Of a DNA stretch of 64,000 bases, positions 715-64,000 are shown piece after piece (the first letter of the stretch is position 1; each line of letters begins with the position of its first letter). The stretch is from a virus (lineage: Duplodnaviria; Caudoviricetes), in the IMG/VR virus record IMGVR_UViG_3300038673_000493, positions 26,580-90,579 of that record. One strand, given 5' to 3'. The position numbers and the translations under genes were made by a program. A model generated the notes under the pieces. That model was not told where the DNA came from. It ran no database searches and worked only from the letters and a program-made list of their open reading frames with translations.

Positions 715-1572
715 ATGACAACTAAACTTTTTCTTGATTCAGGAGCATATTCCGCATATCAGAATAAAACAATTGTTGATATTTATGAATACATGGATTT
801 TATCAAGAAGCATGAAAAAGAAATAACTACTTATGCAAATCTTGATTCTATAGGTTCCGCAGAAGAAACTTGGAAGAATCAGAGAATAATGGAACAACAC
901 GGATTCAATCCCATTCCTGTTTATCATTTAGATGAGGATAATAAATATCTTGATATGTGTTTGAAATATCCTTATTTTGCTGTCGGAGGATTAGCTTCTG
1001 CAAAGGGCAAATCGTTAAAACCTTTTCTGAAAAAAGTATTTGTAAAAGTATGTCCTGAAAGTAATAATTATTATCCCATCTGTAAAGTTCATGGTTTTGG
1101 AATAGCTACTCCTGAAATCATTACTTTTTTTCCCTGGTACAGTATTGATACTACTTCTTGGGTTCAATACGGACGATACGGAATTATACTTGTTCCCAGA
1201 GTAGAGTTTGGAAATATAACATACAAAAAACCACCTATGTCAGTAGCAATTTCTTCAAAATCAAAAGCTATTGGTGACATAAAACATTTTAGACATTGCC
1301 GTGAAAAAGATGAAGTAATGGAATATTGTAGGATTAAAAATTTTCCTATTGGCAAAACTTTGACAAAGAAAGTTAATCCTGGTTATGAATTAAAAGAAAA
1401 TGAATCTTGGATTGATAGAAAAACAAAAGATAAAGTACAAGTGATTATTGAAAGAGGATTGTGTTGTGATGGGGAAATGCGGGATGCTTTGAATTTACAG
1501 TATTTTTTGGATCTTGAAAAACATATTCCTAAATATCCTTGGCAATATAAACATATTCCTAGAGTTGACTGA
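715..1572 (+). CDS. dpdA: TGT-fold, DpdA-like guanine transglycosylase (candidate 7-deazaguanine DNA modification)
   Basis: LFLDSGAYS, YANLD, VHGFG and SIDTTSW motifs typical of phage TGT/DpdA-like proteins. Confidence 0.7.
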   Translation: MTTKLFLDSGAYSAYQNKTIVDIYEYMDFIKKHEKEITTYANLDSIGSAEETWKNQRIMEQHGFNPIPVYHLDEDNKYLDMCLKYPYFAVGGLASAKGKSLKPFLKKVFVKVCPESNNYYPICKVHGFGIATPEIITFFPWYSIDTTSWVQYGRYGIILVPRVEFGNITYKKPPMSVAISSKSKAIGDIKHFRHCREKDEVMEYCRIKNFPIGKTLTKKVNPGYELKENESWIDRKTKDKVQVIIERGLCCDGEMRDALNLQYFLDLEKHIPKYPWQYKHIPRVD

Positions 1573-1590
1573 AAATTTTCAAAAAAATTC

Positions 1591-1606
1591 TGCTATAATT
1601 AAAATA
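1591..1606 (+). promoter_or_regulatory. extended -10 promoter element TGCTATAAT
   Basis: TG-n-TATAAT; identical 16-mer TGCTATAATTAAAATA at 8091-8106; followed by an AAGGAG RBS. Confidence 0.6.
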
Positions 1607-1633
1607 GAAAATAAAAATAAAGGAGAAACCAAA

Positions 1634-2062
1634 ATGCATAAACAAGAAAAATTGTTAAATGCAATTATAAAATCTATCAAACATTGGGAAAAAGATATTC
1701 TTGAAAAGTTAAAAGATGGAGATCGAGCATTCTTAAATTCTTCAGGAATACTTTTTTGGGAAGTTGATGAAACAGAAATTCCTTGTTATGAAAAAAATTG
1801 TCCTTTATGTTTGCATCGTGATAAATATTCAATTTCAGATACCTGTCATGAATGTCCATTATTTGAATGCACCAAAATAGATTGCAATGAATCAGGAAGT
1901 TCTTGGAGTAATTGGTTAACACATCCAAGTGAAAAAACAGCTAATGCGATGATCAGAGATTTAAAGAAAACTTTATTATGGTATTTGCAAGAATTGAAAA
2001 TAAGTGGTGAAATTTATGAGAAAAGAATTTCAGATATTAGGAGTAAATACGGGAAGGATTAA
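1634..2062 (+). CDS. Cys-rich hypothetical protein
   Basis: AAGGAG RBS before ATG 1634; CPLC and CHECPL motifs. Confidence 0.7.
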   Translation: MHKQEKLLNAIIKSIKHWEKDILEKLKDGDRAFLNSSGILFWEVDETEIPCYEKNCPLCLHRDKYSISDTCHECPLFECTKIDCNESGSSWSNWLTHPSEKTANAMIRDLKKTLLWYLQELKISGEIYEKRISDIRSKYGKD

Positions 2063-2078
2063 TTTAAAGGAAAGTAAT

Positions 2079-2204
2079 ATGAGACATGATGACTCGGATC
2101 AAAATGCAGAATATGCCAGATTGAAAAATCTGGAATCGTATGAAATCGAACGGAAAGAAAAAGAAGCCAAACAAAAAGAAAAAGAATCGGAAGATAACGA
2201 TTGA
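2079..2204 (+). CDS. small charged hypothetical protein (41 aa)
   Basis: ATG after AAGGAAAG; fills the intergenic gap. Confidence 0.45.
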   Translation: MRHDDSDQNAEYARLKNLESYEIERKEKEAKQKEKESEDND

Positions 2205-2246
2205 AAATTTCACGTTGATATGCTAACTATAGTTAGTGAGGTGATT

Positions 2247-3194
2247 ATGCAGCCAGAGATGGAATTTGATAAAAAAAATGGCAGTAAACTAACCATTGAA
2301 AATCAAGATGTATATTTTTACACATCAGAAAATATGCCTTTTATAAAAGATGGTTCTGTTAATTTATTTATAACAAGTCCGCCATATTGGAACTTGAAGA
2401 ATTATGGAGGAACACCTAATCAAATTGGGAGAGAACCTTATGAAACTTATTTAGAACGCTTAAATAAAGTATGGCGTGAATGTTTCAGGGTTGCTAAAGA
2501 TAATAGCGTTCTTATCATAAATATTAATTCAAGAAGAGTAGACAAACGGTTTTATCCTATAGCCCTTGATATATACAAAGAAATGAAATTGTGGAAATTA
2601 TGGGATGTGCTAATTTGGTATATTCCGAATGCATTACCACAATGTAAACACTACATGAATAGATTATTTGATAATAAATTTGAGTATCTTTTAATATTTA
2701 CCAAAGGTGATCCAGAAAAACATACTTTTCATAAGCCACGGGTTCCTCAAAAATATGCCACAGCCGATCCACGGCAACATAAAAAAAACAACGCCGGTCG
2801 ATGCATAGGAAACGTATTTAGGATAGCTGCATATAGACCTCCAAATGTCAAACAATTAAGTTATCATGTGGCTGCGTATCCTGAAGAATTAGTTGCTTTT
2901 ATGCTAGAGACGTATACTAACTCCAATGATATAGTTTTAGATCCCTTCCTTGGGAGCGGTACAACTTTAAAAGTCGCCAAGGCCATGAATCGAAAGGGAA
3001 TTGGCTTTGAGTTAAATGATAATTATAAGGAATTGATTGAGGAAAAAATTAAAGAATATTGGGAACCGCCCGACTGGAAGAAACTGGACATAATTCATTC
3101 ATCGACTATGAATACAGGTCTAAAGACCCCTCGAAAGATTCAATTCAAGAAAAATAATGATCTAGTGATAATAGATAACCAGAGTTTATTTTAG
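2247..3194 (+). CDS. DNA N4-cytosine/N6-adenine methyltransferase, beta class
   Basis: TSPPYW catalytic motif precedes VLDPFLGSGTT SAM motif; GAGGTG RBS before ATG 2247. Confidence 0.92.
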   Translation: MQPEMEFDKKNGSKLTIENQDVYFYTSENMPFIKDGSVNLFITSPPYWNLKNYGGTPNQIGREPYETYLERLNKVWRECFRVAKDNSVLIININSRRVDKRFYPIALDIYKEMKLWKLWDVLIWYIPNALPQCKHYMNRLFDNKFEYLLIFTKGDPEKHTFHKPRVPQKYATADPRQHKKNNAGRCIGNVFRIAAYRPPNVKQLSYHVAAYPEELVAFMLETYTNSNDIVLDPFLGSGTTLKVAKAMNRKGIGFELNDNYKELIEEKIKEYWEPPDWKKLDIIHSSTMNTGLKTPRKIQFKKNNDLVIIDNQSLF

Positions 3195-3297
3195 AAACAC
3201 TAAAACTTTACCAGCTTCAATGCCTGGTTTTAGATTTCTTTTAAAAATTATATTGTTTTTATATCTTGAAAGAAACGGTCAAAATTATTGAAAGTAG

Positions 3298-3513
3298 GTG
3301 ATTACAATCATTCTATACTTATCCGGTAATTTCCCTCAATTATCAAAGATTGAGAAAGAACAAAAGATGGCTGAAAACAATCAAAGAAAAGGAGCAGGAT
3401 ACCATCGTCTTATGACTTTCTATTATAAAAAAGATTGTCATACGATTCTGCAAGTGGCTAAAAATATCAAACCAAAAATAACTTTACATAGGAGAATCAA
3501 AGATGAGGATTGA
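3298..3513 (+). CDS. small protein resembling the N-terminal strands of TGT/DpdA-like proteins
   Basis: LYLSG...HRLMTFYY pattern; stop overlaps the clamp gene start. Confidence 0.5.
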   Translation: MITIILYLSGNFPQLSKIEKEQKMAENNQRKGAGYHRLMTFYYKKDCHTILQVAKNIKPKITLHRRIKDED

Positions 3514-4537
3514 TACCAGAGAATTGAGAAATATTTTGTCATTGTTAAGACCAGCTCTTAACAAAAGAGAGCTTGCCCAACAAACAAGTCATTTTATTTT
3601 CTTCAAGGATAAAATTGCTGTTTTCGATACAAAAATCTGCATAACACATCCGTTTGAAAGTGATTATGTATTTTCAATCAAAGGAGAAGAATTTCATCGT
3701 TTGATAAATGGAATTTCGGAAGATGAATTAACTTTAACTATCGATGATAAAAAAACAAAAGCAGAGATACGAACGGATTCAACTTCCTCAACAATGAAAT
3801 TGCTTGATGAAGATCAGGATAAGTATTCTGAAAAAATAAAAAGTCTTGAAAAGAAAATGGGGAAATGGAAAAAACTTCCCAAAGATTTTATTGAAGCTCT
3901 TTCATTATGCAGTTTCACCACATCAACTGATTTAACAGAAGGAGTAAGGACTTGTATTTGCTTCAAAGATAATTATGCTTATTCTTGTGATGGTCATAGA
4001 GTAAGCAGATATAAATTATCGGAGTCTGCGGAAGATGATATAAATGTACCAATCAGAGCCGCTTTAGAACTTATAAAATTTCCTGTAACTGAATATTGTT
4101 TTAGTGGAGAATGGCTTTGTTTCAGAACGGACGAAGATGTGACTTTTTCTTGTTTAGCAATCAATGGAGATTTTCCTTTTGAGAAGATTTCAAAGCCCTT
4201 CAAAGAATTAGAAGAATTATCCACAATTGAACTGCCTGAAGAATTGAAACAAACAATCGATGAAACATTAATGCTTGCTTCAGAAGATACGGCATTCGCT
4301 GGTAAAATAATCACCCTTCATCTTGAAAACAATGAGATACTAGTGACAGCATCTAATGATCTGGGAAACGTCAGCAAACGAGTTTCTTTTGATTATGAAG
4401 AAACACCAATTGATATTAAAATCAATTCTAGTTTCTTATACCAAATTTTAAACAAATCAACGGAAATGTATATCGGAGAAATGATATTTTTTGTAACTCC
4501 TAATTTTCAACACTTCATGGTTAAACGAATAGGATAA
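3503..4537 (+). CDS. dnaN: DNA polymerase sliding clamp (beta-clamp-like)
   Basis: 344 aa, YAYSCDGHRVS (cf. ATDGHRL) and GDFP motifs; adjacent to polymerase and clamp loader. Confidence 0.8.
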   Translation: MRIDTRELRNILSLLRPALNKRELAQQTSHFIFFKDKIAVFDTKICITHPFESDYVFSIKGEEFHRLINGISEDELTLTIDDKKTKAEIRTDSTSSTMKLLDEDQDKYSEKIKSLEKKMGKWKKLPKDFIEALSLCSFTTSTDLTEGVRTCICFKDNYAYSCDGHRVSRYKLSESAEDDINVPIRAALELIKFPVTEYCFSGEWLCFRTDEDVTFSCLAINGDFPFEKISKPFKELEELSTIELPEELKQTIDETLMLASEDTAFAGKIITLHLENNEILVTASNDLGNVSKRVSFDYEETPIDIKINSSFLYQILNKSTEMYIGEMIFFVTPNFQHFMVKRIG

Positions 4538-4540
4538 ATA

Positions 4541-7132
4541 ATGATTCCATCATTTTTTGATGATGATGATTTTATCACCACATCAACAAGCCATCTTTGT
4601 GCTGAATGCAAAAAAGATGTTCGTAGTCGATATAAAAAATTACCCGCAATAGGGGATGGTAAAGTAAGTACATTAATTGTAACGGATACTTTTTTAGACT
4701 TACCTGAATCGTCTAGTGGTAAACATATCGGAGACGGAGAAAAATGGTTTGAAAAGCAACTGAAGAAACGCAGACTTGATTTGTTTTCTGATTTTTGGAT
4801 TATCGGGACAACTCTTTGCAGATCAATTCATGATTACACCAAGCAAGATATAACATATTGTTTTCCAAACATTCTAAATTTTATCAGAGAGCATAAACCT
4901 AAGTTTGTTGTTCTATTAGGAGAAAAAGCAATCGAATCATGGTTTCAATCTCGCTTTTCAAATCTGTCAAGAGAAAGATGGAATAATGTATGCATACCTG
5001 ATTTTGAAAGAAAAGTATGGGTTATTCCTCTTTATCATCCTTCTTATGTTGTAAAAAACGAAAATAATTCCTTAATATCTTCTCAATATGAAAGAGGATT
5101 GGATTTTTTAAAAGAATGCATTATTTCAAAACATGATCTAAACACATTGAAAAGACCTAATTTCGATGATGTTATCGTAATGAAAGATTATGATCAGGTT
5201 TGTGAGGAACTTTCTTATGTAATTGAAAAACCACCTAAATGTATTTGCTTTGACTATGAAACAACTGGATTGAAACCTTACAGACAAGGACACAGAATTG
5301 CCTCTATTTCATATTGTTCCAGTTACTTTAAAGCATTTTCATTTCCTTATCAATATCCTTATTGGAAACCTTTTCAGCAAAAAAAGATCAAAGAAAAATG
5401 GAATCAAATTCTGCAAAATGATTCTTTGAAAATAGCTCATAACATAAAATTTGAAGATGTTTGGTCAAGAATCATTTTACAGACACAGCCGAATAATTGG
5501 CATTGGTGTACTATGGTCGGTGCCCATTCAATTGATAATCGTGCTAAATATTCAGGATTAAAATTTCAATCATTCTTGCATTGGGGATTGCCTAATTATG
5601 ACAAAGAAATAAAACCGTATTTAGAATCATTCGATGATACTGGATTCAATCGGGTAATGAAAGCTCCTCTAAACAAACTTCTTTTATATGGTGGAATCGA
5701 TTCTCTTATTACATTCTGGCTTTTCTTCCTTCAGAAAAAAGAAATGAATGATCACATCATGCAAGGATTTGATCTTTTTGTTGAGGGGACTTTAGCTCTA
5801 GCAGATGTTCAAATTCATGGTATAAACGCGGATACCGAATATTATCATAGAACACATACAGAATTGACAGAACGAATAAAAAAGACGGAGAAAGAGCTTT
5901 TACACTATGATGAATGTAAACAATTTGAAAAAGTTTATGGAAGATTGCCTAATTTAGGATCATCCAAAGATTTAGAAATGATGTTCTTTAAGGTTCTTAA
6001 ATTAGAACCAATAAAACTGACAAGTAGTGGCAAAACAAATGCTGTTGATGCCGATGTAATGAGTAAATTAAACACTCCTCTTGCAAAAGCTATTACCGAT
6101 CTATCACGAATTAAAAAAGTTGATGGCACTTACGTTGCTCAATTTATCAGAGAGATTGATGATGATAATCGTATTCATCCTTTCTATGATCTAACAACTG
6201 TTAAAACATATCGTGGAAGTTCTAGCGGTCCTAACTTTCAAAATATTCCTGTAAGAAATGAAGAGGCAAAAAAATATTCACGATCAGGCATTATTCCCTC
6301 ACCAGGATTTAAAATTCTTGACTTTGATTATGGAGCCATTGAAGTAAGAATGGGAGCTTGCTATACAAAAGATCCTGTATTGATTTCATATATCATGGAT
6401 CCATCAACCGATATGCATCGTGATACTGCAATTGATATTTTCTCATTGAAAAAAGCTCCCGCATCTTTTTGGAAAGACAAGAAAACAGGAAATAAATTAA
6501 GATTCTTCACAAAGAATGGATTTGTATTTCCCGAATGGTACGGATCATATTATAAAAATTGTGCTAAAAATATTTGGAGAGAATGTTCTGAAATACTGAC
6601 TCATGAAGGAATTACTGTCAGAGAGCATTTTAAACGAATTGGTAAAGCCACAGATAAAACGGTGCTTGATTATTTTATCAATCACGTTAAAAAAGTAGAA
6701 GATGCTTATTGGAAAAAATTCAAAGTATTCAAACAATGGCAAGATGCTCAATATAAATTTTATGAAGAAACTGGTTTAGTAAAACTGCTGTCTGGTTTTG
6801 AATGTAAAGGATATTTAGGCAGAAATGAAATCGTTAATTATGCTTTTCAAGGAACTGCATTTCATTGTCTGCTTTGGAGTTTGATTCAGATAAACGGAGA
6901 ATTTAAAGCAAGAGGGATGTTATCAAAAATTATCGGACAAATTCATGATTGTTGTGTAATTGATACTCATCCTAAAGAAGAAAAATTAGTTCGACAAATA
7001 GCCTCAGAGATTGCAACAAAACGTATTAAAGAACATTTTAAATGGATTATTGTTCCATTAATTATTGAATGGGAAAATACAGAAATAGATCAATGTTGGT
7101 ATTCTAAAATCGAAACGAGAGAAGAGGAGTAA
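4541..7132 (+). CDS. polA: family A DNA polymerase with N-terminal family-4 UDG-like domain and 3'-5' exonuclease
   Basis: UDG-like CxxC...CR...C and YHPSY; exo DYETTG, HNIKFE, YGGID; pol SSSGPNFQNIP, DYGAIEVR, K..F....YG, QIHD. Confidence 0.93.
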   Translation: MIPSFFDDDDFITTSTSHLCAECKKDVRSRYKKLPAIGDGKVSTLIVTDTFLDLPESSSGKHIGDGEKWFEKQLKKRRLDLFSDFWIIGTTLCRSIHDYTKQDITYCFPNILNFIREHKPKFVVLLGEKAIESWFQSRFSNLSRERWNNVCIPDFERKVWVIPLYHPSYVVKNENNSLISSQYERGLDFLKECIISKHDLNTLKRPNFDDVIVMKDYDQVCEELSYVIEKPPKCICFDYETTGLKPYRQGHRIASISYCSSYFKAFSFPYQYPYWKPFQQKKIKEKWNQILQNDSLKIAHNIKFEDVWSRIILQTQPNNWHWCTMVGAHSIDNRAKYSGLKFQSFLHWGLPNYDKEIKPYLESFDDTGFNRVMKAPLNKLLLYGGIDSLITFWLFFLQKKEMNDHIMQGFDLFVEGTLALADVQIHGINADTEYYHRTHTELTERIKKTEKELLHYDECKQFEKVYGRLPNLGSSKDLEMMFFKVLKLEPIKLTSSGKTNAVDADVMSKLNTPLAKAITDLSRIKKVDGTYVAQFIREIDDDNRIHPFYDLTTVKTYRGSSSGPNFQNIPVRNEEAKKYSRSGIIPSPGFKILDFDYGAIEVRMGACYTKDPVLISYIMDPSTDMHRDTAIDIFSLKKAPASFWKDKKTGNKLRFFTKNGFVFPEWYGSYYKNCAKNIWRECSEILTHEGITVREHFKRIGKATDKTVLDYFINHVKKVEDAYWKKFKVFKQWQDAQYKFYEETGLVKLLSGFECKGYLGRNEIVNYAFQGTAFHCLLWSLIQINGEFKARGMLSKIIGQIHDCCVIDTHPKEEKLVRQIASEIATKRIKEHFKWIIVPLIIEWENTEIDQCWYSKIETREEE

Positions 7133-56877: not shown

Positions 56878-57126
56878 AAAAGCTCCTTATCAACAAATTG
56901 AATTTCCCGTATTATATAACAGAAGCACTAGAAAGAGTCAAGTAACACAAAGAAAAAGCGGAGTCCAGCAAATGCCAGAGAAAAACGATATGTCTAAACG
57001 ATCAAACAAAGCTTGTTAATAATAATGTATCATTCTTTTAACAGAATTCAGCAAATGAACATTGTTTAAAATATCGATAACAAGTCAATTCTGACGGTTT
57101 GTCTAAACAGTAAGGGTAAACGAATA

Positions 57127-57225
57127 AGTAGAATTGGTTCTTCAGGTTTTCAAAAAATTGGGAAAAAATTTATGGGAGTAGAATAGGTTCTGTAGGTTTT
57201 CAAAAATTGGGAAAAAATTTATGGT
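57127..57225. repeat. two tandem ~50-bp direct repeats
   Basis: AGTAGAAT.GGTTCT..AGGTTTTCAAAAA(A)TTGGGAAAAAATTTATGG at 57127 and 57177. Confidence 0.9.
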
Positions 57226-57247
57226 GAGGACCCTGCCGACTGCATAT

Positions 57248-57283
57248 AAAAAATACGTCAAGATAGAACTTGACGTACTTTTT
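57248..57283. terminator. intrinsic terminator of the GG/CC-free gene
   Basis: TACGTCAAG/CTTGACGTA stem, 6-nt loop, A6 on the left and T-run on the right. Confidence 0.8.
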
Positions 57284-57291
57284 ATTTGTGT

Positions 57292-57621
57292 TTACTGATT
57301 CAAGAGCATATTGCGTGATATAACTCTTGATTTCTCGTCATGATTAATATGACGTTTAATTCGCTTGTATGCACTAGTTACATCATTGCATAGCTTCATT
57401 GCAACAAGCTTATCAGCTATATCATTGACTTTGTACTTTAAGCGTATACATGCATCGATGCAGCTTGCTTGTGTATGTACATTGTTGAATACTGATTCAT
57501 TGAGCTTTGTCAATTTTACATTGTCTTTACAGTCTGTAATGATGCGTTTACGAATTACGTTTACATTGATGCGTTTCACTTCAATCTTCGCTTCTTTTTT
57601 GTTTTCGTTGTTAGTAGTCAT
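57292..57621 (-). CDS. basic helical (HTH-like) early protein lacking Gly, Pro and Trp
   Basis: 109 aa with its own promoter and terminator; similar to the C-terminal domain of 61258..61890. Confidence 0.75.
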   Translation of the reverse strand: MTTNNENKKEAKIEVKRINVNVIRKRIITDCKDNVKLTKLNESVFNNVHTQASCIDACIRLKYKVNDIADKLVAMKLCNDVTSAYKRIKRHINHDEKSRVISRNMLLNQ

Positions 57622-57696
57622 TGTTTTTCTCTTTTCTCTTTTTATAGTCTTTAGTGACTTGCTTAATTGTTAGTTAGTTAGTTTACTTAATTAACG

Positions 57697-57732
57697 ATGC
57701 AAGCTTAACTAAAAGAACAAAGAAGCTTGCAT
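57697..57732 (-). other. inverted repeat in the 5' UTR
   Basis: ATGCAAGCTT - 16 nt - AAGCTTGCAT. Confidence 0.6.
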
Positions 57733-57804
57733 ATACGCTTAACAGAATCATTGTTTTTGTCATTATCTTTGTTTCACTTTCATTTTTATTTTAACTTCGA
57801 TTAA

Positions 57805-57833
57805 AATCTAGCAAATCTTTTATACTTTGTCAA
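57805..57833 (-). promoter_or_regulatory. strong sigma70 promoter (leftward)
   Basis: TTGACA-17 nt-TAGATT with TGn extension and an upstream A-tract UP-like element. Confidence 0.85.
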
Positions 57834-58426
57834 GTGTTTTTTTATATTTTTTTTATATTTTTTATCACTTTTAATTATTTAATATTATTAATGTTTTTAC
57901 CTAACTATTGATTATTACTGTCTTTTTGTCTTTTAAGCAAGAGACAGCGCCGACGGCTGGATTGTTATCGCCATTACCTGGTAATGGTTCCATTCCGCCT
58001 ACCTAATATTTTCCGAAGGCACCTTCGACAATTCCGCTGACTTCTATACATCACTACTGTATATGATGCTTTATTTCGCGGTAGAATGTGGTATCCCATA
58101 ATCTTTGTTCATAAACAATAAATCATATTAATTGATCTTAAATAATGGCAAACGGCGTTTAAACAAGAAATCCTGGTTTTAAAAATAAAATAGGAAAATT
58201 GAATCGGAAAAGGGTTTCCTTCGGAAGGAAAGTTTTATTTAGAAAAAAGTTTCCTTTTCCAGGAACTTTATTGCCAGGAAAGAAAGTAATTTGAGTCCGT
58301 CCCGAGGATCGGAAATAAAGCCGAACCCAAAGCGGATAGAAAAGCCGGTCCAACGGATGGATTCAATATAGATAGAACCGCGGATTGGTTATTCGGAAAG
58401 GGCGGATCCGGGTGGAGAGGCGGTAC

Positions 58427-58484
58427 CTTTTCCCTTTCTTTCCTCTCCTATTTTCCTTTTCCCTTTCTTTCCTCTCCTATTTTC
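58427..58484. repeat. 29-bp pyrimidine-rich tandem duplication
   Basis: CTTTTCCCTTTCTTTCCTCTCCTATTTTC x2. Confidence 0.85.
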
Positions 58485-59026
58485 CTTTCCCGTTTCCTTT
58501 TAAATCACCATTTCCGCTTATACAAGAATTTCCTTTTTATAAACCCAACCAACCTACCATTCCTACCTACCTACCTTCCTTTTAAAAACATTTAAACAAT
58601 CAATTCCTTTTTAACAAGACTTTTATCTTTGATTCCTTTTTAAACAAAACTTCTTTTTTCTTTTGAAACCGATTCCTTTTATTAACTCCTTTTTATACAA
58701 TCATTCTTACATTGTTTATAGTTTTTACTTCCTTCCTTTTTCTTCTTTTATTATTGGTTTTATTATTGTTTTTGTTTCCTTTAATGGTTTTAATTTGTTT
58801 TCCTTTTATCTTCGATTTTTTGTTTCCATTGTCGATTGATTTATCCTTGGATATTATTTACCTTTGTCTTTAATTATTTGGATATTATTTATTTTCTTTT
58901 TGGATTATTTTTCGTCAGAAATTTGTGAGAAATCCTTGTGGGAAATTCTTATTTTCGGAAATTCTTTTCCTCGAACCGTTGTGGAACTGTTTATTTTGCT
59001 TCAAAAACATTTTTTTGTCTTTTTTC

Positions 59027-59055
59027 TTGACAAAACTATATGGTTTCTTTATACT
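59027..59055 (+). promoter_or_regulatory. strong sigma70 promoter (rightward, early operon)
   Basis: TTGACA-17 nt-TATACT with T-tract upstream. Confidence 0.88.
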
Positions 59056-59061
59056 TTGCTT

Positions 59062-59623
59062 GACAATTGAATAGTAGTTGATAGCTGACGAGATTACAAC
59101 ATAGTCAGAGAGATTGAACCAGAAAGCATTGCTTTCGCATCGAAGTATGATGTTAACCGCACTTTCACATAACGATTCTTTAATGATGCGAATCATGATC
59201 GAATCCGCTAGAAAAAAATGCTGTTGACCACAAGACTACAGAGCGTGGTTTAAAAACGATTAGATCAGCGAACAGTTATTTTTGACGAAAAAAGCGAAAG
59301 TCCTAGTGAACTTCTCTTGAGCTGACTGGTTAGACAATATGCTATCTGGGAACAATCACTTTGCAGACATGATGAAAAGACTCGTTTCGGGTATAGTCAG
59401 AAAATATTTGATTATTATGTCATGAGCAAACATATTTGGGTAAGAACGTCACGAAAATCTGTTCGGCAAAATCAGTAGACGGATCGCACTAGGCACTCTC
59501 TTTCTTTTCTCCTTCAGATCGTTGTCCGTGCATTATTGACAATGATCTGTTTGACGGGCAAGAAGAAATTCTTGCCCGTCTTGTTTGAATGCTCAAACAG
59601 AAATGGTTGAGCATTGAAACAAG
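59062..59623 (+). ncRNA. candidate large structured RNA / long leader
   Basis: No + strand ORF of 60 aa or more for about 590 nt after the promoter; strong hairpins at 59515-59549, 59553-59580 (GAAA loop) and 59580-59623. Confidence 0.5.
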
Positions 59624-59649
59624 TCTAACTTGAAAGGAGAAAGAAAGAT

Positions 59650-60147
59650 ATGGAGCAAGCTAAAGACAAAAAAGCTTATTACGGTTACATCTTGATGGAG
59701 CGATTTGGCAGTCAACGAGTACGTCATTTCCGAAAATCAACTGCACGTCGGTTAAGCGTAGCTGAAGCTCGAATCCACGATTTGATAAGAAATGGTCGTT
59801 GGACAAACGAAAGAATCTTTGAAATCTGGGATGGAATCAATCCAAAATTGATTATCACATGCAGAAAAAACGAAAATGGAAATATCGTGATTACCAAAAA
59901 AGACTACTTTAAAGAGTATGTTGGTTTCATTGAGACACGAAAAGGAAAAATTTTCGTGAATGATGTAGTTGGTCGTGACAGAGACTATTTTTTGGCAACA
60001 AAGAATAGACGAAATATCACGATCGGAGCAAGAGCGGGTGATTTGACTTCTTTTGTCAAAAAAGAAGCAATGGACAAAGTTCTTTGTCAAAAAGTATCTG
60101 CTCGGGGTTACAAAGTATCAGAAAAAGTCACAAAACGGGAGTTCTGA
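59650..60147 (+). CDS. early hypothetical protein
   Basis: AAAGGAGAAAG RBS. Confidence 0.75.
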   Translation: MEQAKDKKAYYGYILMERFGSQRVRHFRKSTARRLSVAEARIHDLIRNGRWTNERIFEIWDGINPKLIITCRKNENGNIVITKKDYFKEYVGFIETRKGKIFVNDVVGRDRDYFLATKNRRNITIGARAGDLTSFVKKEAMDKVLCQKVSARGYKVSEKVTKREF

Positions 60148-60153
60148 AAAGAA

Positions 60154-60221
60154 TGCAGAGAGACAACGATGGTCAAAGATCATCGTTGGTAATGCACAGT
60201 TTCGGTCTCAAGTCCGAAATA
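60154..60221 (+). ncRNA. twister ribozyme 1 (permuted, P5-type); predicted cut 60190/60191
   Basis: GCA-GA-GAG, P1 hairpin, U|AA-UGC-AC, P4 UUUCGG/CCGAAA with loop UCUCAAGU. Confidence 0.85.
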
Positions 60222-60243
60222 CTAACTTAAAAGGAGAAAGAAA

Positions 60244-60615
60244 ATGAAAGAGAAAAAGAATCCTCGGGAAGAAATCGTTGTGGTCTTTTCTGATGAAATG
60301 CCGGATGAGGACATTCAATTATTGGCAGAAGATGTTGAAGAAACGAGCTTCATGATTTTGGAAGTTTTCGACAACGGAAACAAAGTGATTGCTGATATTC
60401 CTTCAGAAATCCCCGATCCAGACTTCAAAGGAACTCTTGAAGAATATTGGATGGATGTTCTGAATGAAACAAAATGTCCATGCTGTCATCCGATTGAAGA
60501 ATCACAAATTGCTGTTTGGGCAGTTTATCGTTTGAAAGATTTCATCAAAAAGGATAAGAAATTGAATCCCAAGATAGGCGGAGCTTACAGAGACATTTGG
60601 GAAAAGTATCTGTAG
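60244..60615 (+). CDS. early acidic hypothetical protein
   Basis: Conserved RBS; CPCCH. Confidence 0.75.
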   Translation: MKEKKNPREEIVVVFSDEMPDEDIQLLAEDVEETSFMILEVFDNGNKVIADIPSEIPDPDFKGTLEEYWMDVLNETKCPCCHPIEESQIAVWAVYRLKDFIKKDKKLNPKIGGAYRDIWEKYL

Positions 60616-60618
60616 CAT

Positions 60619-60684
60619 TGCAGAGAGGACGGAGTCAGAAATGACTTCGTTTAATGCACACTTCTGGTCTCAAGTCCAGAAAAT
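60619..60684 (+). ncRNA. twister ribozyme 2; predicted cut 60652/60653
   Basis: T2 GAG/CUC; P4 UUCUGG/CCAGAA. Confidence 0.85.
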
Positions 60685-60710
60685 AGAGAGAGAAAGAAAG
60701 GAGTAGGAAA

Positions 60711-60884
60711 ATGATTTCGGAAAAGTTTTTGCTGAAATGCTATGCGGAAACGGGGAATCGTAAATTCTTGCAGAGAGCCAAAGCAATTGCAAAATCAGAA
60801 AGGTATGCAAAAGACAAACGATTCCGAGAAATTGAAACAACAAATCGTGATGTATTCCCTTCCCTAGCTGAATGTCAAAGATAG
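60711..60884 (+). CDS. early small protein (57 aa)
   Basis: AAGGAG RBS; fills the space between ribozymes 2 and 3. Confidence 0.65.
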   Translation: MISEKFLLKCYAETGNRKFLQRAKAIAKSERYAKDKRFREIETTNRDVFPSLAECQR

Positions 60885-60886
60885 CT

Positions 60887-60953
60887 TGCAGAGGGCATGA
60901 AGTCATAAATGGCTTCATGTAATGCACAATCTCCGTCCCAAGTCGGAGAAATA
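60887..60953 (+). ncRNA. twister ribozyme 3; predicted cut 60920/60921
   Basis: T2 GGG/CCC; P4 UCUCCG/CGGAGA. Confidence 0.85.
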
Positions 60954-60978
60954 AAAATTGAAAAGGAGAAAAAAAGAA

Positions 60979-61161
60979 ATGGGAGAAAACAATTACAGCG
61001 TGGAAGTAAAAGGTAAGGAAATGATCATTCGGATAGACCTGTCACAAAATTTGGGCAGAAGTCAGTCAGGAAAAAACATTCTTGTTGCTTCTTCCAAGGG
61101 CAATCAGTTCATTGAAAAAGCCGGAGTAACACTCGGTCTCAATGTTTACAAGAAAGCCTAA
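60979..61161 (+). CDS. early small beta-rich protein (60 aa)
   Basis: IDLSQNLGRSQSGKNILVASSKGN...LGLNVY. Confidence 0.75.
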   Translation: MGENNYSVEVKGKEMIIRIDLSQNLGRSQSGKNILVASSKGNQFIEKAGVTLGLNVYKKA

Positions 61162-61163
61162 AT

Positions 61164-61230
61164 TGCAGAAGGGTCGGAGTCAGAAATGGCTCCGATTAAT
61201 GCGCCTATCAGGTCCTAAGCCCTGATAAAA
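61164..61230 (+). ncRNA. twister ribozyme 4; predicted cut 61197/61198
   Basis: Both pseudoknots covary: T2 AGG/CCU, T1 GC/GC; loop UCCUAAGC. Confidence 0.88.
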
Positions 61231-61257
61231 TCAAACGCATTAAAAGGAGAAAGAAAG

Positions 61258-61890
61258 ATGAAAAAGAATGAGAAAAACCTGGCAAAGACGACAAAGAAGG
61301 CTGATGCAAAAGCGGATGCAAAAGCGAAAATCACCTTGACGCCGAAAGCAAATGTGGCACCGGTAGCAGAGTCAAAAGGACCAGACCGTCCTGAAATGCC
61401 TGCTAATTTCTGTCTCACGAAAAAAGAGTGGGATTCGGATGCTACAGGTTTCGATGCCACAAGCAATCAGTGCAAAGCTTGCGGGAAAGATTTTCCTGAT
61501 ACTTGCAAAGTTTGCAAAACCCGTGCAGAGTTTCTGGCTTCTAAAGCGAAGGAAGCAAAAGTCAGAAAAGCTGGTGGTCTCCGCAAGACAAGTTCTACTT
61601 CCGGTATTCCCCCGCAGACAAAGATCATTGATGACGGTCTGCTGGCAAAACTGCCGAAGTCAGAAATTGTCACGAATCTAGCAATGGCTCACTATGGTGG
61701 CAATGGAGAAGCAAATATTGCTCTTGCAACAAAACGGTTTGATCGGCATCTGAAGTCGATCAAAGACGGTTCTTATGTCAGAGCGGCAACGGTCGTCAAT
61801 TGCATTGCTTATCTGTCGGCAAAAGCTGTTAAAGCAGAGCAGGCACCGGCAAAAGCATCGGCAAAGGTTACTTCTTCTAAAAAGAAGTAG
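61258..61890 (+). CDS. early basic protein: Cys cluster + HTH-like domain, Lys/Ala-rich ends
   Basis: C..CKAC..CKVC; QTKIID...EI...L...ATKRFDRHL. Confidence 0.8.
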   Translation: MKKNEKNLAKTTKKADAKADAKAKITLTPKANVAPVAESKGPDRPEMPANFCLTKKEWDSDATGFDATSNQCKACGKDFPDTCKVCKTRAEFLASKAKEAKVRKAGGLRKTSSTSGIPPQTKIIDDGLLAKLPKSEIVTNLAMAHYGGNGEANIALATKRFDRHLKSIKDGSYVRAATVVNCIAYLSAKAVKAEQAPAKASAKVTSSKKK

Positions 61891-61902
61891 CGAATGATTC
61901 AT

Positions 61903-61976
61903 TGCAGAGGGACAAGGGGTCAGAAATTCTTCTGGCTCCTTGGTAATGCACAATTTCAGTCCCAAGTCTGAAAATA
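61903..61976 (+). ncRNA. twister ribozyme 5; predicted cut 61944/61945
   Basis: 12-bp P1 with wobbles; P4 UUUCAG/CUGAAA. Confidence 0.85.
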
Positions 61977-61999
61977 AACGAGAAAAGGAGAAGGGAGTT

Positions 62000-62110
62000 A
62001 TGAAAAGGAAAGACATAAGAATCATAAGAAAAGCAATTGAATGGGCTTTGAGAGCATTAGTTATTGGCATTCTTGTGGGAATCGTTTATATGATTGTAAC
62101 AATCCCGTAA
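62000..62110 (+). CDS. early small membrane protein (36 aa)
   Basis: MKRKDIRIIRKAIEWALRALVIGILVGIVYMIVTIP*. Confidence 0.65.
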   Translation: MKRKDIRIIRKAIEWALRALVIGILVGIVYMIVTIP

Positions 62111-62111
62111 T

Positions 62112-62173
62112 TGCAGAGGGAGCGGAGTCAAAAACTCCGCTTAATGCACAATCACCGTCCCAAGTCGGTGAAG
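62112..62173 (+). ncRNA. twister ribozyme 6; predicted cut 62142/62143
   Basis: P1 GCGGAGU/ACUCCGC; P4 UCACCG/CGGUGA. Confidence 0.85.
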
Positions 62174-62190
62174 AAAGGAGAAAGAAAGAA

Positions 62191-62496
62191 ATGAACTACC
62201 AAGAAGTGAGGAAAAAAGCGAAAGAGTTCAAAGAAGTATCCAAAGAATTGGATGATCGTTTAATAAAAATTGCCAATATGACATGGCAAACAATTGCTGG
62301 AGATGTTTTTGATTGTATCGGCAAAGATACAATGAAAAGATCCGAAGTTATTGAATGCGTAGGGGATGCGGACTACATGTTCACACATGGAAACGATCCT
62401 GAAGCTTATGCTTATTTTCTTTACCTGTTCCATAACAATGAAAAACATCTTCAGAAAGTTATGAAACAGGCTTTTCCGTATGCAAAATATTGTTAG
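62191..62496 (+). CDS. early hypothetical protein (101 aa)
   Basis: Conserved RBS before ATG 62191. Confidence 0.75.
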   Translation: MNYQEVRKKAKEFKEVSKELDDRLIKIANMTWQTIAGDVFDCIGKDTMKRSEVIECVGDADYMFTHGNDPEAYAYFLYLFHNNEKHLQKVMKQAFPYAKYC

Positions 62497-62557
62497 CAGA
62501 GGGGGCGGAGCTTCTGCTCCGTCTAATGCACACTTGCCGTCCCAAGTCGGCAAAATA
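62496..62557 (+). ncRNA. twister ribozyme 7; predicted cut 62524/62525
   Basis: P1 GGCGGAGC/GCUCCGUC; P4 UUGCCG/CGGCAA; starts at the G of the UAG stop. Confidence 0.85.
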
Positions 62558-62582
62558 GAGAGAGAAAGAAAGGAGAAAGAAA

Positions 62583-62759
62583 ATGCCAACAGAACAATTA
62601 TTGCTGCCGAAAGAAGATCCTAAAGAAGTCTTTTTTTACAAACATGGAGATATTGCTGTTATGAATCCAGCAACTCCGGGAGTTCCTGTTCGAGCTTTCT
62701 TCATTACAAGAAATGATCTAAATGGGTTATGGGGCATATTTATTGGACAAACAAGATAG
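62583..62759 (+). CDS. early small protein (58 aa)
   Basis: Conserved RBS; MPTEQLLLPKEDPKEVFFYKHG...GQTR*. Confidence 0.65.
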   Translation: MPTEQLLLPKEDPKEVFFYKHGDIAVMNPATPGVPVRAFFITRNDLNGLWGIFIGQTR

Positions 62760-62821
62760 CAGAGGGGACGGAGCTAAAAACTCCGTCTAATGCACAATCA
62801 CCGTCCCAAGTCGGTGAAATA
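62759..62821 (+). ncRNA. twister ribozyme 8; predicted cut 62788/62789
   Basis: P1 GACGGAG/CUCCGUC; P4 UCACCG/CGGUGA. Confidence 0.85.
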
Positions 62822-62844
62822 AAAGAGAAAAGGAGAAAAAGAAA

Positions 62845-63159
62845 ATGAGCAAGCGACAGGAAGAAATTCAGGAAGCCCTTCGGTTAGAGGCAGAAAAAAA
62901 ATTGGCGATAGAGCTGGTTGAAAAACTGGCTAATTATGTGAACATAATGGGCAGAGATTATGCTCCATTTATCGAAAGACTTATTTACGGAACCCATCGA
63001 ACATTGCAACAATCTGTTTTTGGACTGTTTTTACAATGCATTAAAGGTTTTGCTGAATTACCAGAAAGATATACTGATCCTCGTAATGAAGCAACCGTTG
63101 AAGTTTGTAAGAAAATCATGGAAGCAGTGGAAGGCAGAACGAGACTTCCTTTGATTTAG
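62845..63159 (+). CDS. early hypothetical protein
   Basis: HRTLQQ...RNEA motifs; conserved RBS. Confidence 0.75.
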   Translation: MSKRQEEIQEALRLEAEKKLAIELVEKLANYVNIMGRDYAPFIERLIYGTHRTLQQSVFGLFLQCIKGFAELPERYTDPRNEATVEVCKKIMEAVEGRTRLPLI

Positions 63160-63174
63160 CGTTCAGAAAAATTT

Positions 63175-63236
63175 TGCAGAGAGGTCGGAGCAATAGCTCC
63201 GATTAATGCACAATCCCAGTCTCAAGTCTGGGAAAT
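63175..63236 (+). ncRNA. twister ribozyme 9; predicted cut 63204/63205
   Basis: T2 GAG/CUC; P1 UCGGAGC/GCUCCGA; P4 UCCCAG/CUGGGA. Confidence 0.85.
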
Positions 63237-63260
63237 AAAAAGAAAAGGAGAAAGAAAGAA

Positions 63261-63281
63261 ATGGAAGAGAAAATCATTTGA
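63261..63281 (+). pseudogene. interrupted early gene start (MEEKII*)
   Basis: Full conserved RBS, then a stop after 6 codons at the edge of the endonuclease cassette. Confidence 0.55.
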
Positions 63282-63306
63282 CAATTTATCCTAAATAAAA
63301 TATACT
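63278..63306 (+). promoter_or_regulatory. sigma70 promoter of the GIY-YIG cassette
   Basis: TTGACA-17 nt-TATACT, then AAGGAG RBS. Confidence 0.85.
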
Positions 63307-63326
63307 CCAAATAAAAAGGAGTATTT

Positions 63327-64000
63327 ATGAAAAAAGAATATTATGTTTACATTTACTTGGATACAAGTAAACCAGGTAAATATGTTTATGGAGAATACAA
63401 ATTTTTACATGAGCCTATTTATGTGGGAAAAGGTAAACGCAAAAGAGCCTATTATTATGAAAAAAGAAACAAATACCTTAAAAATAAAATAAAAAAAATA
63501 GGAAAACCCATTATTTTAATAATAACAAAGGATTTGGAAGAATCAAAAGCATTTGAATTAGAAAAATTTTTAATTGCTTTAATAGGTAGAAAAGATTTAG
63601 GAAAAGGACCATTATGTAATTTTACGGATGGTGGAGAAGGACCGAGTGGAAACATTCGATCCAAAGAAACAAGAAAGAAAATGTCCATTGCTAAAAAAGG
63701 AAGAATTGTTTCCGAAGAAACAAGAAAAAAATTATCCGATATTAATAAAGGCAAAGTAATGCCTGAATCGGTTAAAGAAAAAATAAAAAATACTTTAATG
63801 GGAACACACAGATCGGAAAAAACAAAATTGAAAATTTCTTTAGGTCATAGAACTTCAATGCTTGATAAATCTAAATCACAAACAACCCGAGATAAAATGA
63901 GAAAAGCAAATTTAGGTAAAACATTATCACAAACAACCCGAGATAAAATGAGAAAAGCAAATTTAGGTAAAACATTATCACAAACAACCCGAGATAAAAT
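63327..64000 (+). mobile_element. GIY-YIG homing endonuclease with NUMOD3 repeats (partial, runs off the window)
   Basis: YVYIYLD...PIYVGKG...E...NFTDGGEG, then (R/V)SxETRKK(M/L)S repeats. Confidence 0.88.
63876..64000 (+). repeat. exact 51-bp tandem repeat (17-aa NUMOD3 unit), about 2.5 copies
   Basis: Units start at 63876, 63927 and 63978. Confidence 0.9.

Follow-up and report, generated by a model that had tools for sequence, protein, structure and literature searches.

We analysed a 64,000-nucleotide stretch of viral DNA, hereafter the window, comprising bases 26580-90579 of the complete 90,579-bp virus record IMGVR_UViG_3300038673_000493. Towards its 3′ end, the window carries an array of nine elements identified as type-P5 twister ribozymes (60154-63231), whose predicted cuts delimit eight small units. 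The array is probably a ribozyme-punctuated operon of early type that gives linear, standardised single-gene mRNAs. An initial annotation of the same DNA had described the units as ribozyme-excised monocistrons with ends compatible with RtcB, and had read them either as protected, individually tuned mRNAs or as precursors of circular mRNAs. Coordinates below are those of the window unless a genome position is given.

Type-P5 twister ribozymes in the array

Ribozymes were identified with Rfam cmscan and the model Twister-P5 (RF02684; gathering score 37.6 bits). All nine matches in the window scored above the gathering score (44.5-54 bits) and lie on the plus strand, at 60154-60217 (ribozyme 1, 49.9 bits), 60619-60679 (ribozyme 2, 44.5 bits), 60887-60947 (ribozyme 3, 49.2 bits), 61164-61224 (ribozyme 4, 45.8 bits), 61903-61971 (ribozyme 5, 51.2 bits), 62112-62169 (ribozyme 6, 50.6 bits), 62495-62551 (ribozyme 7, 50.8 bits), 62758-62815 (ribozyme 8, 48.9 bits) and 63175-63231 (ribozyme 9, 54 bits). 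After ribozyme 9 the array crosses the junction of the record and continues with 11 further copies at genome positions 916-6579. The whole 90,579-bp record holds 20 copies, all of them over the gathering score and on the plus strand. These 20 twisters lie within about 10 kb, and almost all gene spacers of the array contain one.

All copies share one order of elements: (U/A)GCA, GARRG, the P1 hairpin, U^AA, UGC, AC, one or two further nucleotides, and P4 with the loop UCYYAAGY. UAAUGC and the P4 loop are present in all 20 copies, and P2 (GCA/UGC) is invariant. The type-P5 twister (Rfam RF02684; the class of Roth et al. 2014, reviewed in PMC5408937) has the same arrangement, with a 5′ P2 strand, GAGGG, a P1 hairpin, U^AA, a 3′ P2 strand, P4 with the loop UCCCAAGY, both pseudoknots and the conserved core. 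Unlike the RF02684 consensus, the array copies have no evident P5 stem, and their second pseudoknot is mostly AC:GU instead of GC:GC, with GC:GC found in ribozyme 4. The array also differs in that three covarying versions of the GGG:CCC pseudoknot occur together. This 3-bp pseudoknot, named T2 in the initial annotation, pairs GRRGG with CYY of the P4 loop and is formed by GAGGG:CCC (ribozyme 3), GAGAG:CUC (ribozymes 1, 2 and 9) or GAAGG:CCU (ribozyme 4). Within the native ribozymes of the phage it is Watson-Crick in 20 of 20.

The cleavage dinucleotide of the twister class is U-A, lying between the 3′ strands of P1 and P2 (PMC5408937). The predicted cuts in ribozymes 1 to 9 fall at 60190/60191, 60652/60653, 60920/60921, 61197/61198, 61944/61945, 62142/62143, 62524/62525, 62788/62789 and 63204/63205. 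Self-cleavage and the resulting 5′-OH and 2′,3′-cyclic phosphate ends are properties of the twister class, and we infer them for the array from its membership of that class.

Type-P5 twisters are not confined to this phage. The subtype is present in 56 viral stretches, and five other viral records (46-92 kb, three of them complete) carry 7-15 Twister-P5 matches each, 7-14 of which exceed the gathering score. We examined covariation in 68 distinct copies from six phage arrays. Each P1 and P4 position remains paired while using three to six pair types. The innermost pairs of P4 form in 67-68 of the 68 copies and draw on up to five pair types; pairing at P1 positions, of many types, is present in 58-68 copies. 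GRRGG:CYY covaries from G-C to A-U at two positions and is paired in 67-68 copies, and every catalytic-core base is kept throughout. In a relative of the phage (G004, 92-99% identical), the ortholog of ribozyme 1 shows two compensatory pair changes in P4. Since P1, P4 and the two pseudoknots are kept by compensatory changes, the alignments clearly point to selection on a folded, active RNA. Pairing conserved to this degree lies well outside what chance would give. Judged by motif order, score and covariation, the nine elements in the window are genuine type-P5 twister ribozymes.

Single-gene units and their predicted transcripts

The predicted cuts coincide exactly with the unit limits of the initial annotation (60191-63204) and give eight plus-strand units of 198-747 nt, with one ribozyme per spacer and one GGAG-led open reading frame (ORF) in each unit (8/8). 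Unit 1 (60191-60652, 462 nt) contains an ORF of 123 amino acids (aa) at 60244-60615, unit 2 (60653-60920, 268 nt) one of 57 aa at 60711-60884, unit 3 (60921-61197, 277 nt) one of 60 aa, counted from ATG, at 60979-61161, and unit 4 (61198-61944, 747 nt) one of 210 aa at 61258-61890. The ORF of unit 5 (61945-62142, 198 nt) encodes a hydrophobic peptide of 36 aa (62000-62110). Units 6 (62143-62524, 382 nt), 7 (62525-62788, 264 nt) and 8 (62789-63204, 416 nt) contain ORFs of 101 aa (62191-62496), 58 aa (62583-62759) and 104 aa (62845-63159), respectively. A first ORF of 165 aa lies upstream of ribozyme 1 on the same strand (59650-60147), and its mRNA would retain the primary 5′ end.

The start codon lies 49-61 nt past the cut (in two units after the start codon was chosen anew), and the stop codon lies between 2 nt inside and 15 nt ahead of the next ribozyme. 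As the initial annotation had observed for copies 7 and 8, the UAG codons at 62494-62496 and 62757-62759 overlap the ribozymes, the ORFs ending at 62496 and 62759 sharing the first two ribozyme bases. Each unit opens with 8-9 unpaired nucleotides and a 6-7-bp P4 hairpin, followed by an almost pyrimidine-free spacer and GGAG. The AAUGCAC start attributed to all units holds in general, with the exception of unit 4, which has AAUGCGC. At the 3′ end stands a P1 hairpin of 7-13 bp (-10 to -20 kcal/mol) followed by U, with the long P1 of ribozyme 5 at the upper limit (13 bp, -20 kcal/mol). P4, the spacer and the Shine-Dalgarno (SD) sequence are uniform among units, and only the stability of P1 varies. 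This uniformity argues not for individual tuning but for standardisation, in the sense that each unit would be insulated from translational coupling and from the sequence next to it. The earlier description of protected, individually tuned mRNAs holds with respect to excised single-gene mRNAs with hairpins near both ends, but tuning is not evident, the 5′ leaders being strikingly uniform.

A sigma-70-like promoter (TTGACA-17-TATACT, 59027-59055, plus strand) matches the consensus at 11 of 12 positions and is the likely start of the polycistronic transcript. Only two such strong promoters occur on the plus strand in 57000-64000, at 59027 and 63278. Within 59650-63260 we found no comparable promoter and no strong terminator, so that the simplest reading places all eight units on a single polycistronic transcript.

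We propose that one long transcript would begin at the 59027 promoter and that each twister would fold during transcription and cut at U^AAUGC. The products would be linear single-gene mRNAs with a 5′-OH ahead of the 8-9 unpaired nucleotides, the P4 hairpin and the pyrimidine-poor GGAG spacer. Beyond the ORF, with its stop codon no more than 15 nt from the next ribozyme, they would end in the P1 hairpin and a U with a 2′,3′-cyclic phosphate. Such processing may serve to uncouple small genes and to present a uniform, unstructured ribosome-binding region, with the 3′ hairpin acting against 3′ exonucleases. The proteins gave no informative match in Pfam or PHROGs, and gene function offers no clue to why the genes are separated; the 165-aa ORF likewise had no match in either collection. 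Such a lack of matches is typical of early, host-directed small genes.

Several observations weigh against this proposal. Some units of the array carry two ORFs or a homing endonuclease, so that one gene per unit is a rule with exceptions. Among the 24 runs listed, X19 and X20 are the only true metatranscriptomes (both from one anaerobic-digester study); X15 and X16 are labelled RNA-Seq and are probably DNA. Coverage by contigs from X19 and X20 is confined to 59089-59494 and, within unit 4, 61347-61898, and no contig crosses a cut site. The four runs examined are stored as contigs, which cannot show RNA ends. Cutting may stabilise or destabilise the messages; from work on glmS in Bacillus, a 5′-OH followed by 8-9 unpaired nucleotides may reportedly invite decay of the RNase J type instead of giving protection.

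The arrangement, together with both of its possible outcomes (linear mRNAs and circles), has been in the literature since 2011, and the array is a large and very regular new example, incremental to that work. Perreault et al. (2011) described several hammerheads that flank single, variable genes in prophages, showed that polycistronic hammerhead constructs of ~2 kb are cut in vitro at every ribozyme, and proposed processing to operon-length or single-gene mRNAs (PMC3088659). A 2019 review suggested polycistron processing for twisters too and called the function open (PMC6765202). As in the hammerhead arrays, self-cleaving ribozymes here flank individual, variable and mostly uncharacterised small genes in phage DNA. 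The ribozymes are of the twister class, however, and number 20 in about 10 kb, where the hammerhead arrays have two to a few. The hammerheads were seen to cleave in vitro and in E. coli, whereas cleavage of the twister array is predicted from sequence.

Synthetic insulators of the RiboJ type place a self-cleaving ribozyme and a hairpin just upstream of the ribosome-binding site (RBS), which removes the upstream context and makes initiation uniform. Unlike these engineered parts, the array would apply the principle in nature, repeated 20-fold. What purpose the thousands of bacterial and phage twisters and hammerheads serve is an open question in the literature (PMC6765202, PMC5408937). As a test case, this phage is compact, complete and very regular, with 20 intact twisters, a promoter-proximal block of eight single-gene units within 3 kb, three natural pseudoknot versions and close relatives with differing cassettes. 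It bears on phage early-gene biology and on the design of multi-gene synthetic operons.

Recombination, decay and circularisation as alternatives

The ribozyme-plus-RBS repeats also act as recombination sites for the gain and loss of cassettes. Compared with window positions 60463-63239, the relative G004 carries four additional gene cassettes, distributed over three indels. Each of the indels that separate this phage (G000) from G004 is bounded by duplicated ribozymes and has its breakpoints inside them, the homology blocks stopping and resuming at 60683/60619, 62191/62113 and 62852/62752. Some G004 ribozymes combine P1 of one copy of this phage with P4 of another. A 104-nt contig from X15, probably DNA, joins 60219 to 62172, just past ribozymes 1 and 6, and skips 1952 bp; with only 22 nt on one side, it weakly points the same way and may derive from a variant or relative that lacks five cassettes. 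Perreault et al. had also remarked that the genes flanked by hammerheads are inconstant (PMC3088659).

These data bear on the idea that the ~100-bp repeats are mainly recombination modules, comparable to the promoter/stem-loop cassettes of T4-type phages, with RNA cleavage secondary. We consider this unlikely. Plain repeats would need neither compensatory pairing in P1, P4 and the pseudoknots nor conservation of the core in 68 copies, and the two roles can coexist.

It is quite improbable that the array instead works as a decay timer, in which 5′-OH ends would hasten degradation, keep early messages short-lived and make early expression self-limiting. The 8-9 unpaired nucleotides before P4 could load a 5′ exonuclease, and in the metatranscriptomes the uncut leader upstream of the first ORF is more abundant than the sole unit seen, which favours a timer weakly, contig depths being unable to rank genes. 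The conserved P1 hairpin at the 3′ end and P4 hairpin at the 5′ end, by contrast, look protective.

In the remaining alternative, put forward by the initial annotation, the unit ends would be joined, through either host RtcB or reversal of the twister reaction, producing exonuclease-resistant circular mRNAs translated from their internal SD. The expected 5′-OH and 2′,3′-cyclic phosphate are the substrate chemistry of RtcB, and P2, being identical in all copies, could form between any two ribozyme halves. Flanking twisters leave the same ends on the excised RNA in the engineered Tornado system, which combines twisters with RtcB (PMC12118343). Tornado ribozymes, however, are cut at their own edges, almost none of the ribozyme remains, and a designed closing stem is added. 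The array units, unlike these, keep half a ribozyme at each end and have no dedicated closing stem, and their ligation would rebuild the twister.

The unit ends are not matched beyond chance. We confirmed the T2 pairings of the initial annotation, which are Watson-Crick for units 1-2, 5-6, 6-7 and 7-8 and contain a C-A mismatch for 3-4 and 8-9; those at unit ends 2-3 and 4-5 are G-U. Over the whole array, the pseudoknot across unit ends is Watson-Crick in 8 cases, G-U in 6 and mismatched in 5 of 19, against a permutation mean of 8.2 Watson-Crick cases (P=0.65). Two other arrays with mixed pseudoknot versions are likewise at chance. Cofolding of the last 60 nt of a unit with its own first 60 nt gained about -3.3 kcal/mol, compared with -3.1 kcal/mol for non-cognate ends (P=0.19). 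Cognate ends thus fold no better than non-cognate ones, which argues against a closing stem like that of Tornado. Avoidance of the same pseudoknot version by neighbouring ribozymes, as a guard against misfolding, was tested as well, and the observed count equalled the expected one.

Junction logic also disfavours circles. Once joined, the ends of a matched unit would form a full twister again, P2 and pseudoknot included, and this should cleave itself anew. Tornado escapes this by discarding its ribozymes, and instability is reported for engineered circles in which an active ribozyme is retained (PMC12118343). If rebuilt matched twisters are cut again, mismatched units would be better candidates for stable circles than matched ones.

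The initial annotation had also suggested looking for a phage RNA ligase in the rest of the genome. A search of the phage for four ligase families (RtcB, RNA_ligase (Rnl2-like), RNA_lig_T4_1 (Rnl1) and 2′-5′ RNA ligase) returned no match, and neither did a search of the five other array-bearing records for the two families RtcB and RNA_ligase. With no phage ligase detected, any ligation would depend on the host. A pattern scan of genome contigs found contigs 85-95% identical to parts of the array binned with an uncultured Caldisericales metagenome-assembled genome (MAG). A close relative of the phage was therefore binned in this MAG, and the binning is a weak hint of a host. Other MAG matches in the scan were scattered over many phyla and were set aside, only the Caldisericales contigs being truly related. 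The Caldisericales MAG encodes an intact RtcB, a weak hint of a host enzyme, as RtcB is common (10 of 14 control genomes).

Back-spliced reads in metatranscriptomes had been named as a sign of circles. No back-spliced joint was seen in the four runs, whose RNA coverage of the array is almost nil, confined to the leader and a segment of unit 4, and insufficient to rule a joint out. Two joints in X15 (60642-60190 with 13 extra letters and 60683-59630 with 5 extra) were rejected as back-splices; they fit other twister copies, or copies from relatives, aligned piecewise to the repeats. Metagenome contigs contained 0 matches to the unit-4 junction 24-mer or to a pattern joining the end of the unit-8 ORF to its own start, a result made uninformative by a collection that is mostly DNA. 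Short junction patterns are moreover confounded, because the P1/P4 combinations of relatives mimic junctions. Contigs encoding the 210-aa protein of unit 4 show linear order only, and contig ends near ribozymes are expected from assembly breaks induced by repeats.

For hammerhead arrays, spliced or circular RNAs arising by cleavage and ligation were also proposed in 2011, and Perreault et al. detected neither (data not shown; PMC3088659). The units further resemble retrozymes and viroid-like hammerhead circular RNAs (PMC4918200, PMC7761336) in that a segment between two ribozymes of the same class would be excised with ligatable ends. Those RNAs are non-coding and are copied via circles by reverse transcriptase or RNA polymerase, whereas the array units are protein-coding cassettes of a DNA phage for which no circles were seen. 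An RVT_1 (reverse transcriptase) search of the phage gave no match, which makes a retrozyme-like cycle unlikely.

End matching, cofolding, junction logic and the ligase search thus lent no support to the units as circular mRNA precursors. Circularisation is a minority possibility, and as an account of the array we judge it very improbable. Our literature search turned up no publication on circular mRNAs produced by phage twister arrays; if mismatched units did circularise, they would represent the first circular mRNA system to occur naturally in a bacteriophage. Least probable of all is a version in which host RtcB would close only a subset of units into circular, translatable mRNAs, likeliest the mismatched 3-4 and 8-9, whose rebuilt twister would be crippled and unable to cut itself again, with the three pseudoknot versions as a code for which messages stay circular and long-lived.

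Phage genome and features flanking the array

The source virus is a tailed double-stranded DNA phage from anaerobic digesters. The ends of its complete record overlap by 55 bp. The phage encodes a family-A DNA polymerase, gp32-like and RecA-like proteins, an E-type major capsid protein and a minor tail protein of the tape-measure type; a candidate lambda-type portal is a weak match below the cut-off. DNA nearly identical to it is present in metagenomes of anaerobic digesters, bioreactors, sludge and wastewater from 12 studies.

An ORF-free leader of about 590 nt (59062-59649, plus strand) lies between the 59027 promoter and the first ORF, and ends in a terminator-like hairpin (59553-59580) with a T-tract (TTGTTTG). 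No Rfam family matched the leader. It is the best-covered part in X19 and X20, with contigs at 59089-59489 and 59097-59494 and word depths of 8 and 32, compared with 2.5-5 for unit 4. The leader contigs end before the terminator-like hairpin. The leader may be a stable leader RNA or an attenuator RNA.

Genome positions 6096-6155 form the sole spacer of the array without a twister. The minimum-free-energy (MFE) fold of this segment is a three-way junction with the core letters of a hammerhead (AUC-GAAA-stem III-GUC, stem I, CUGAAGA-U-GAU) and an MFE z-score of -3.15. Searches of Rfam returned no hammerhead match, at E up to 1 for all families and up to 10 for Hammerhead_II alone. We treat the segment as a type II hammerhead candidate only and did not use it as evidence.

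Immediately past ribozyme 9, the region 63262-64000 holds a mini-ORF of 6 codons, an exact duplicate of the 59027 promoter (TTGACA-17-TATACT, 63278-63306, plus strand) and, from 63327, a GIY-YIG/NUMOD3 homing endonuclease gene. Its 3′ part contains a tandem repeat of about 51 bp (63870-64000). The region looks like a mobile insertion into the array.

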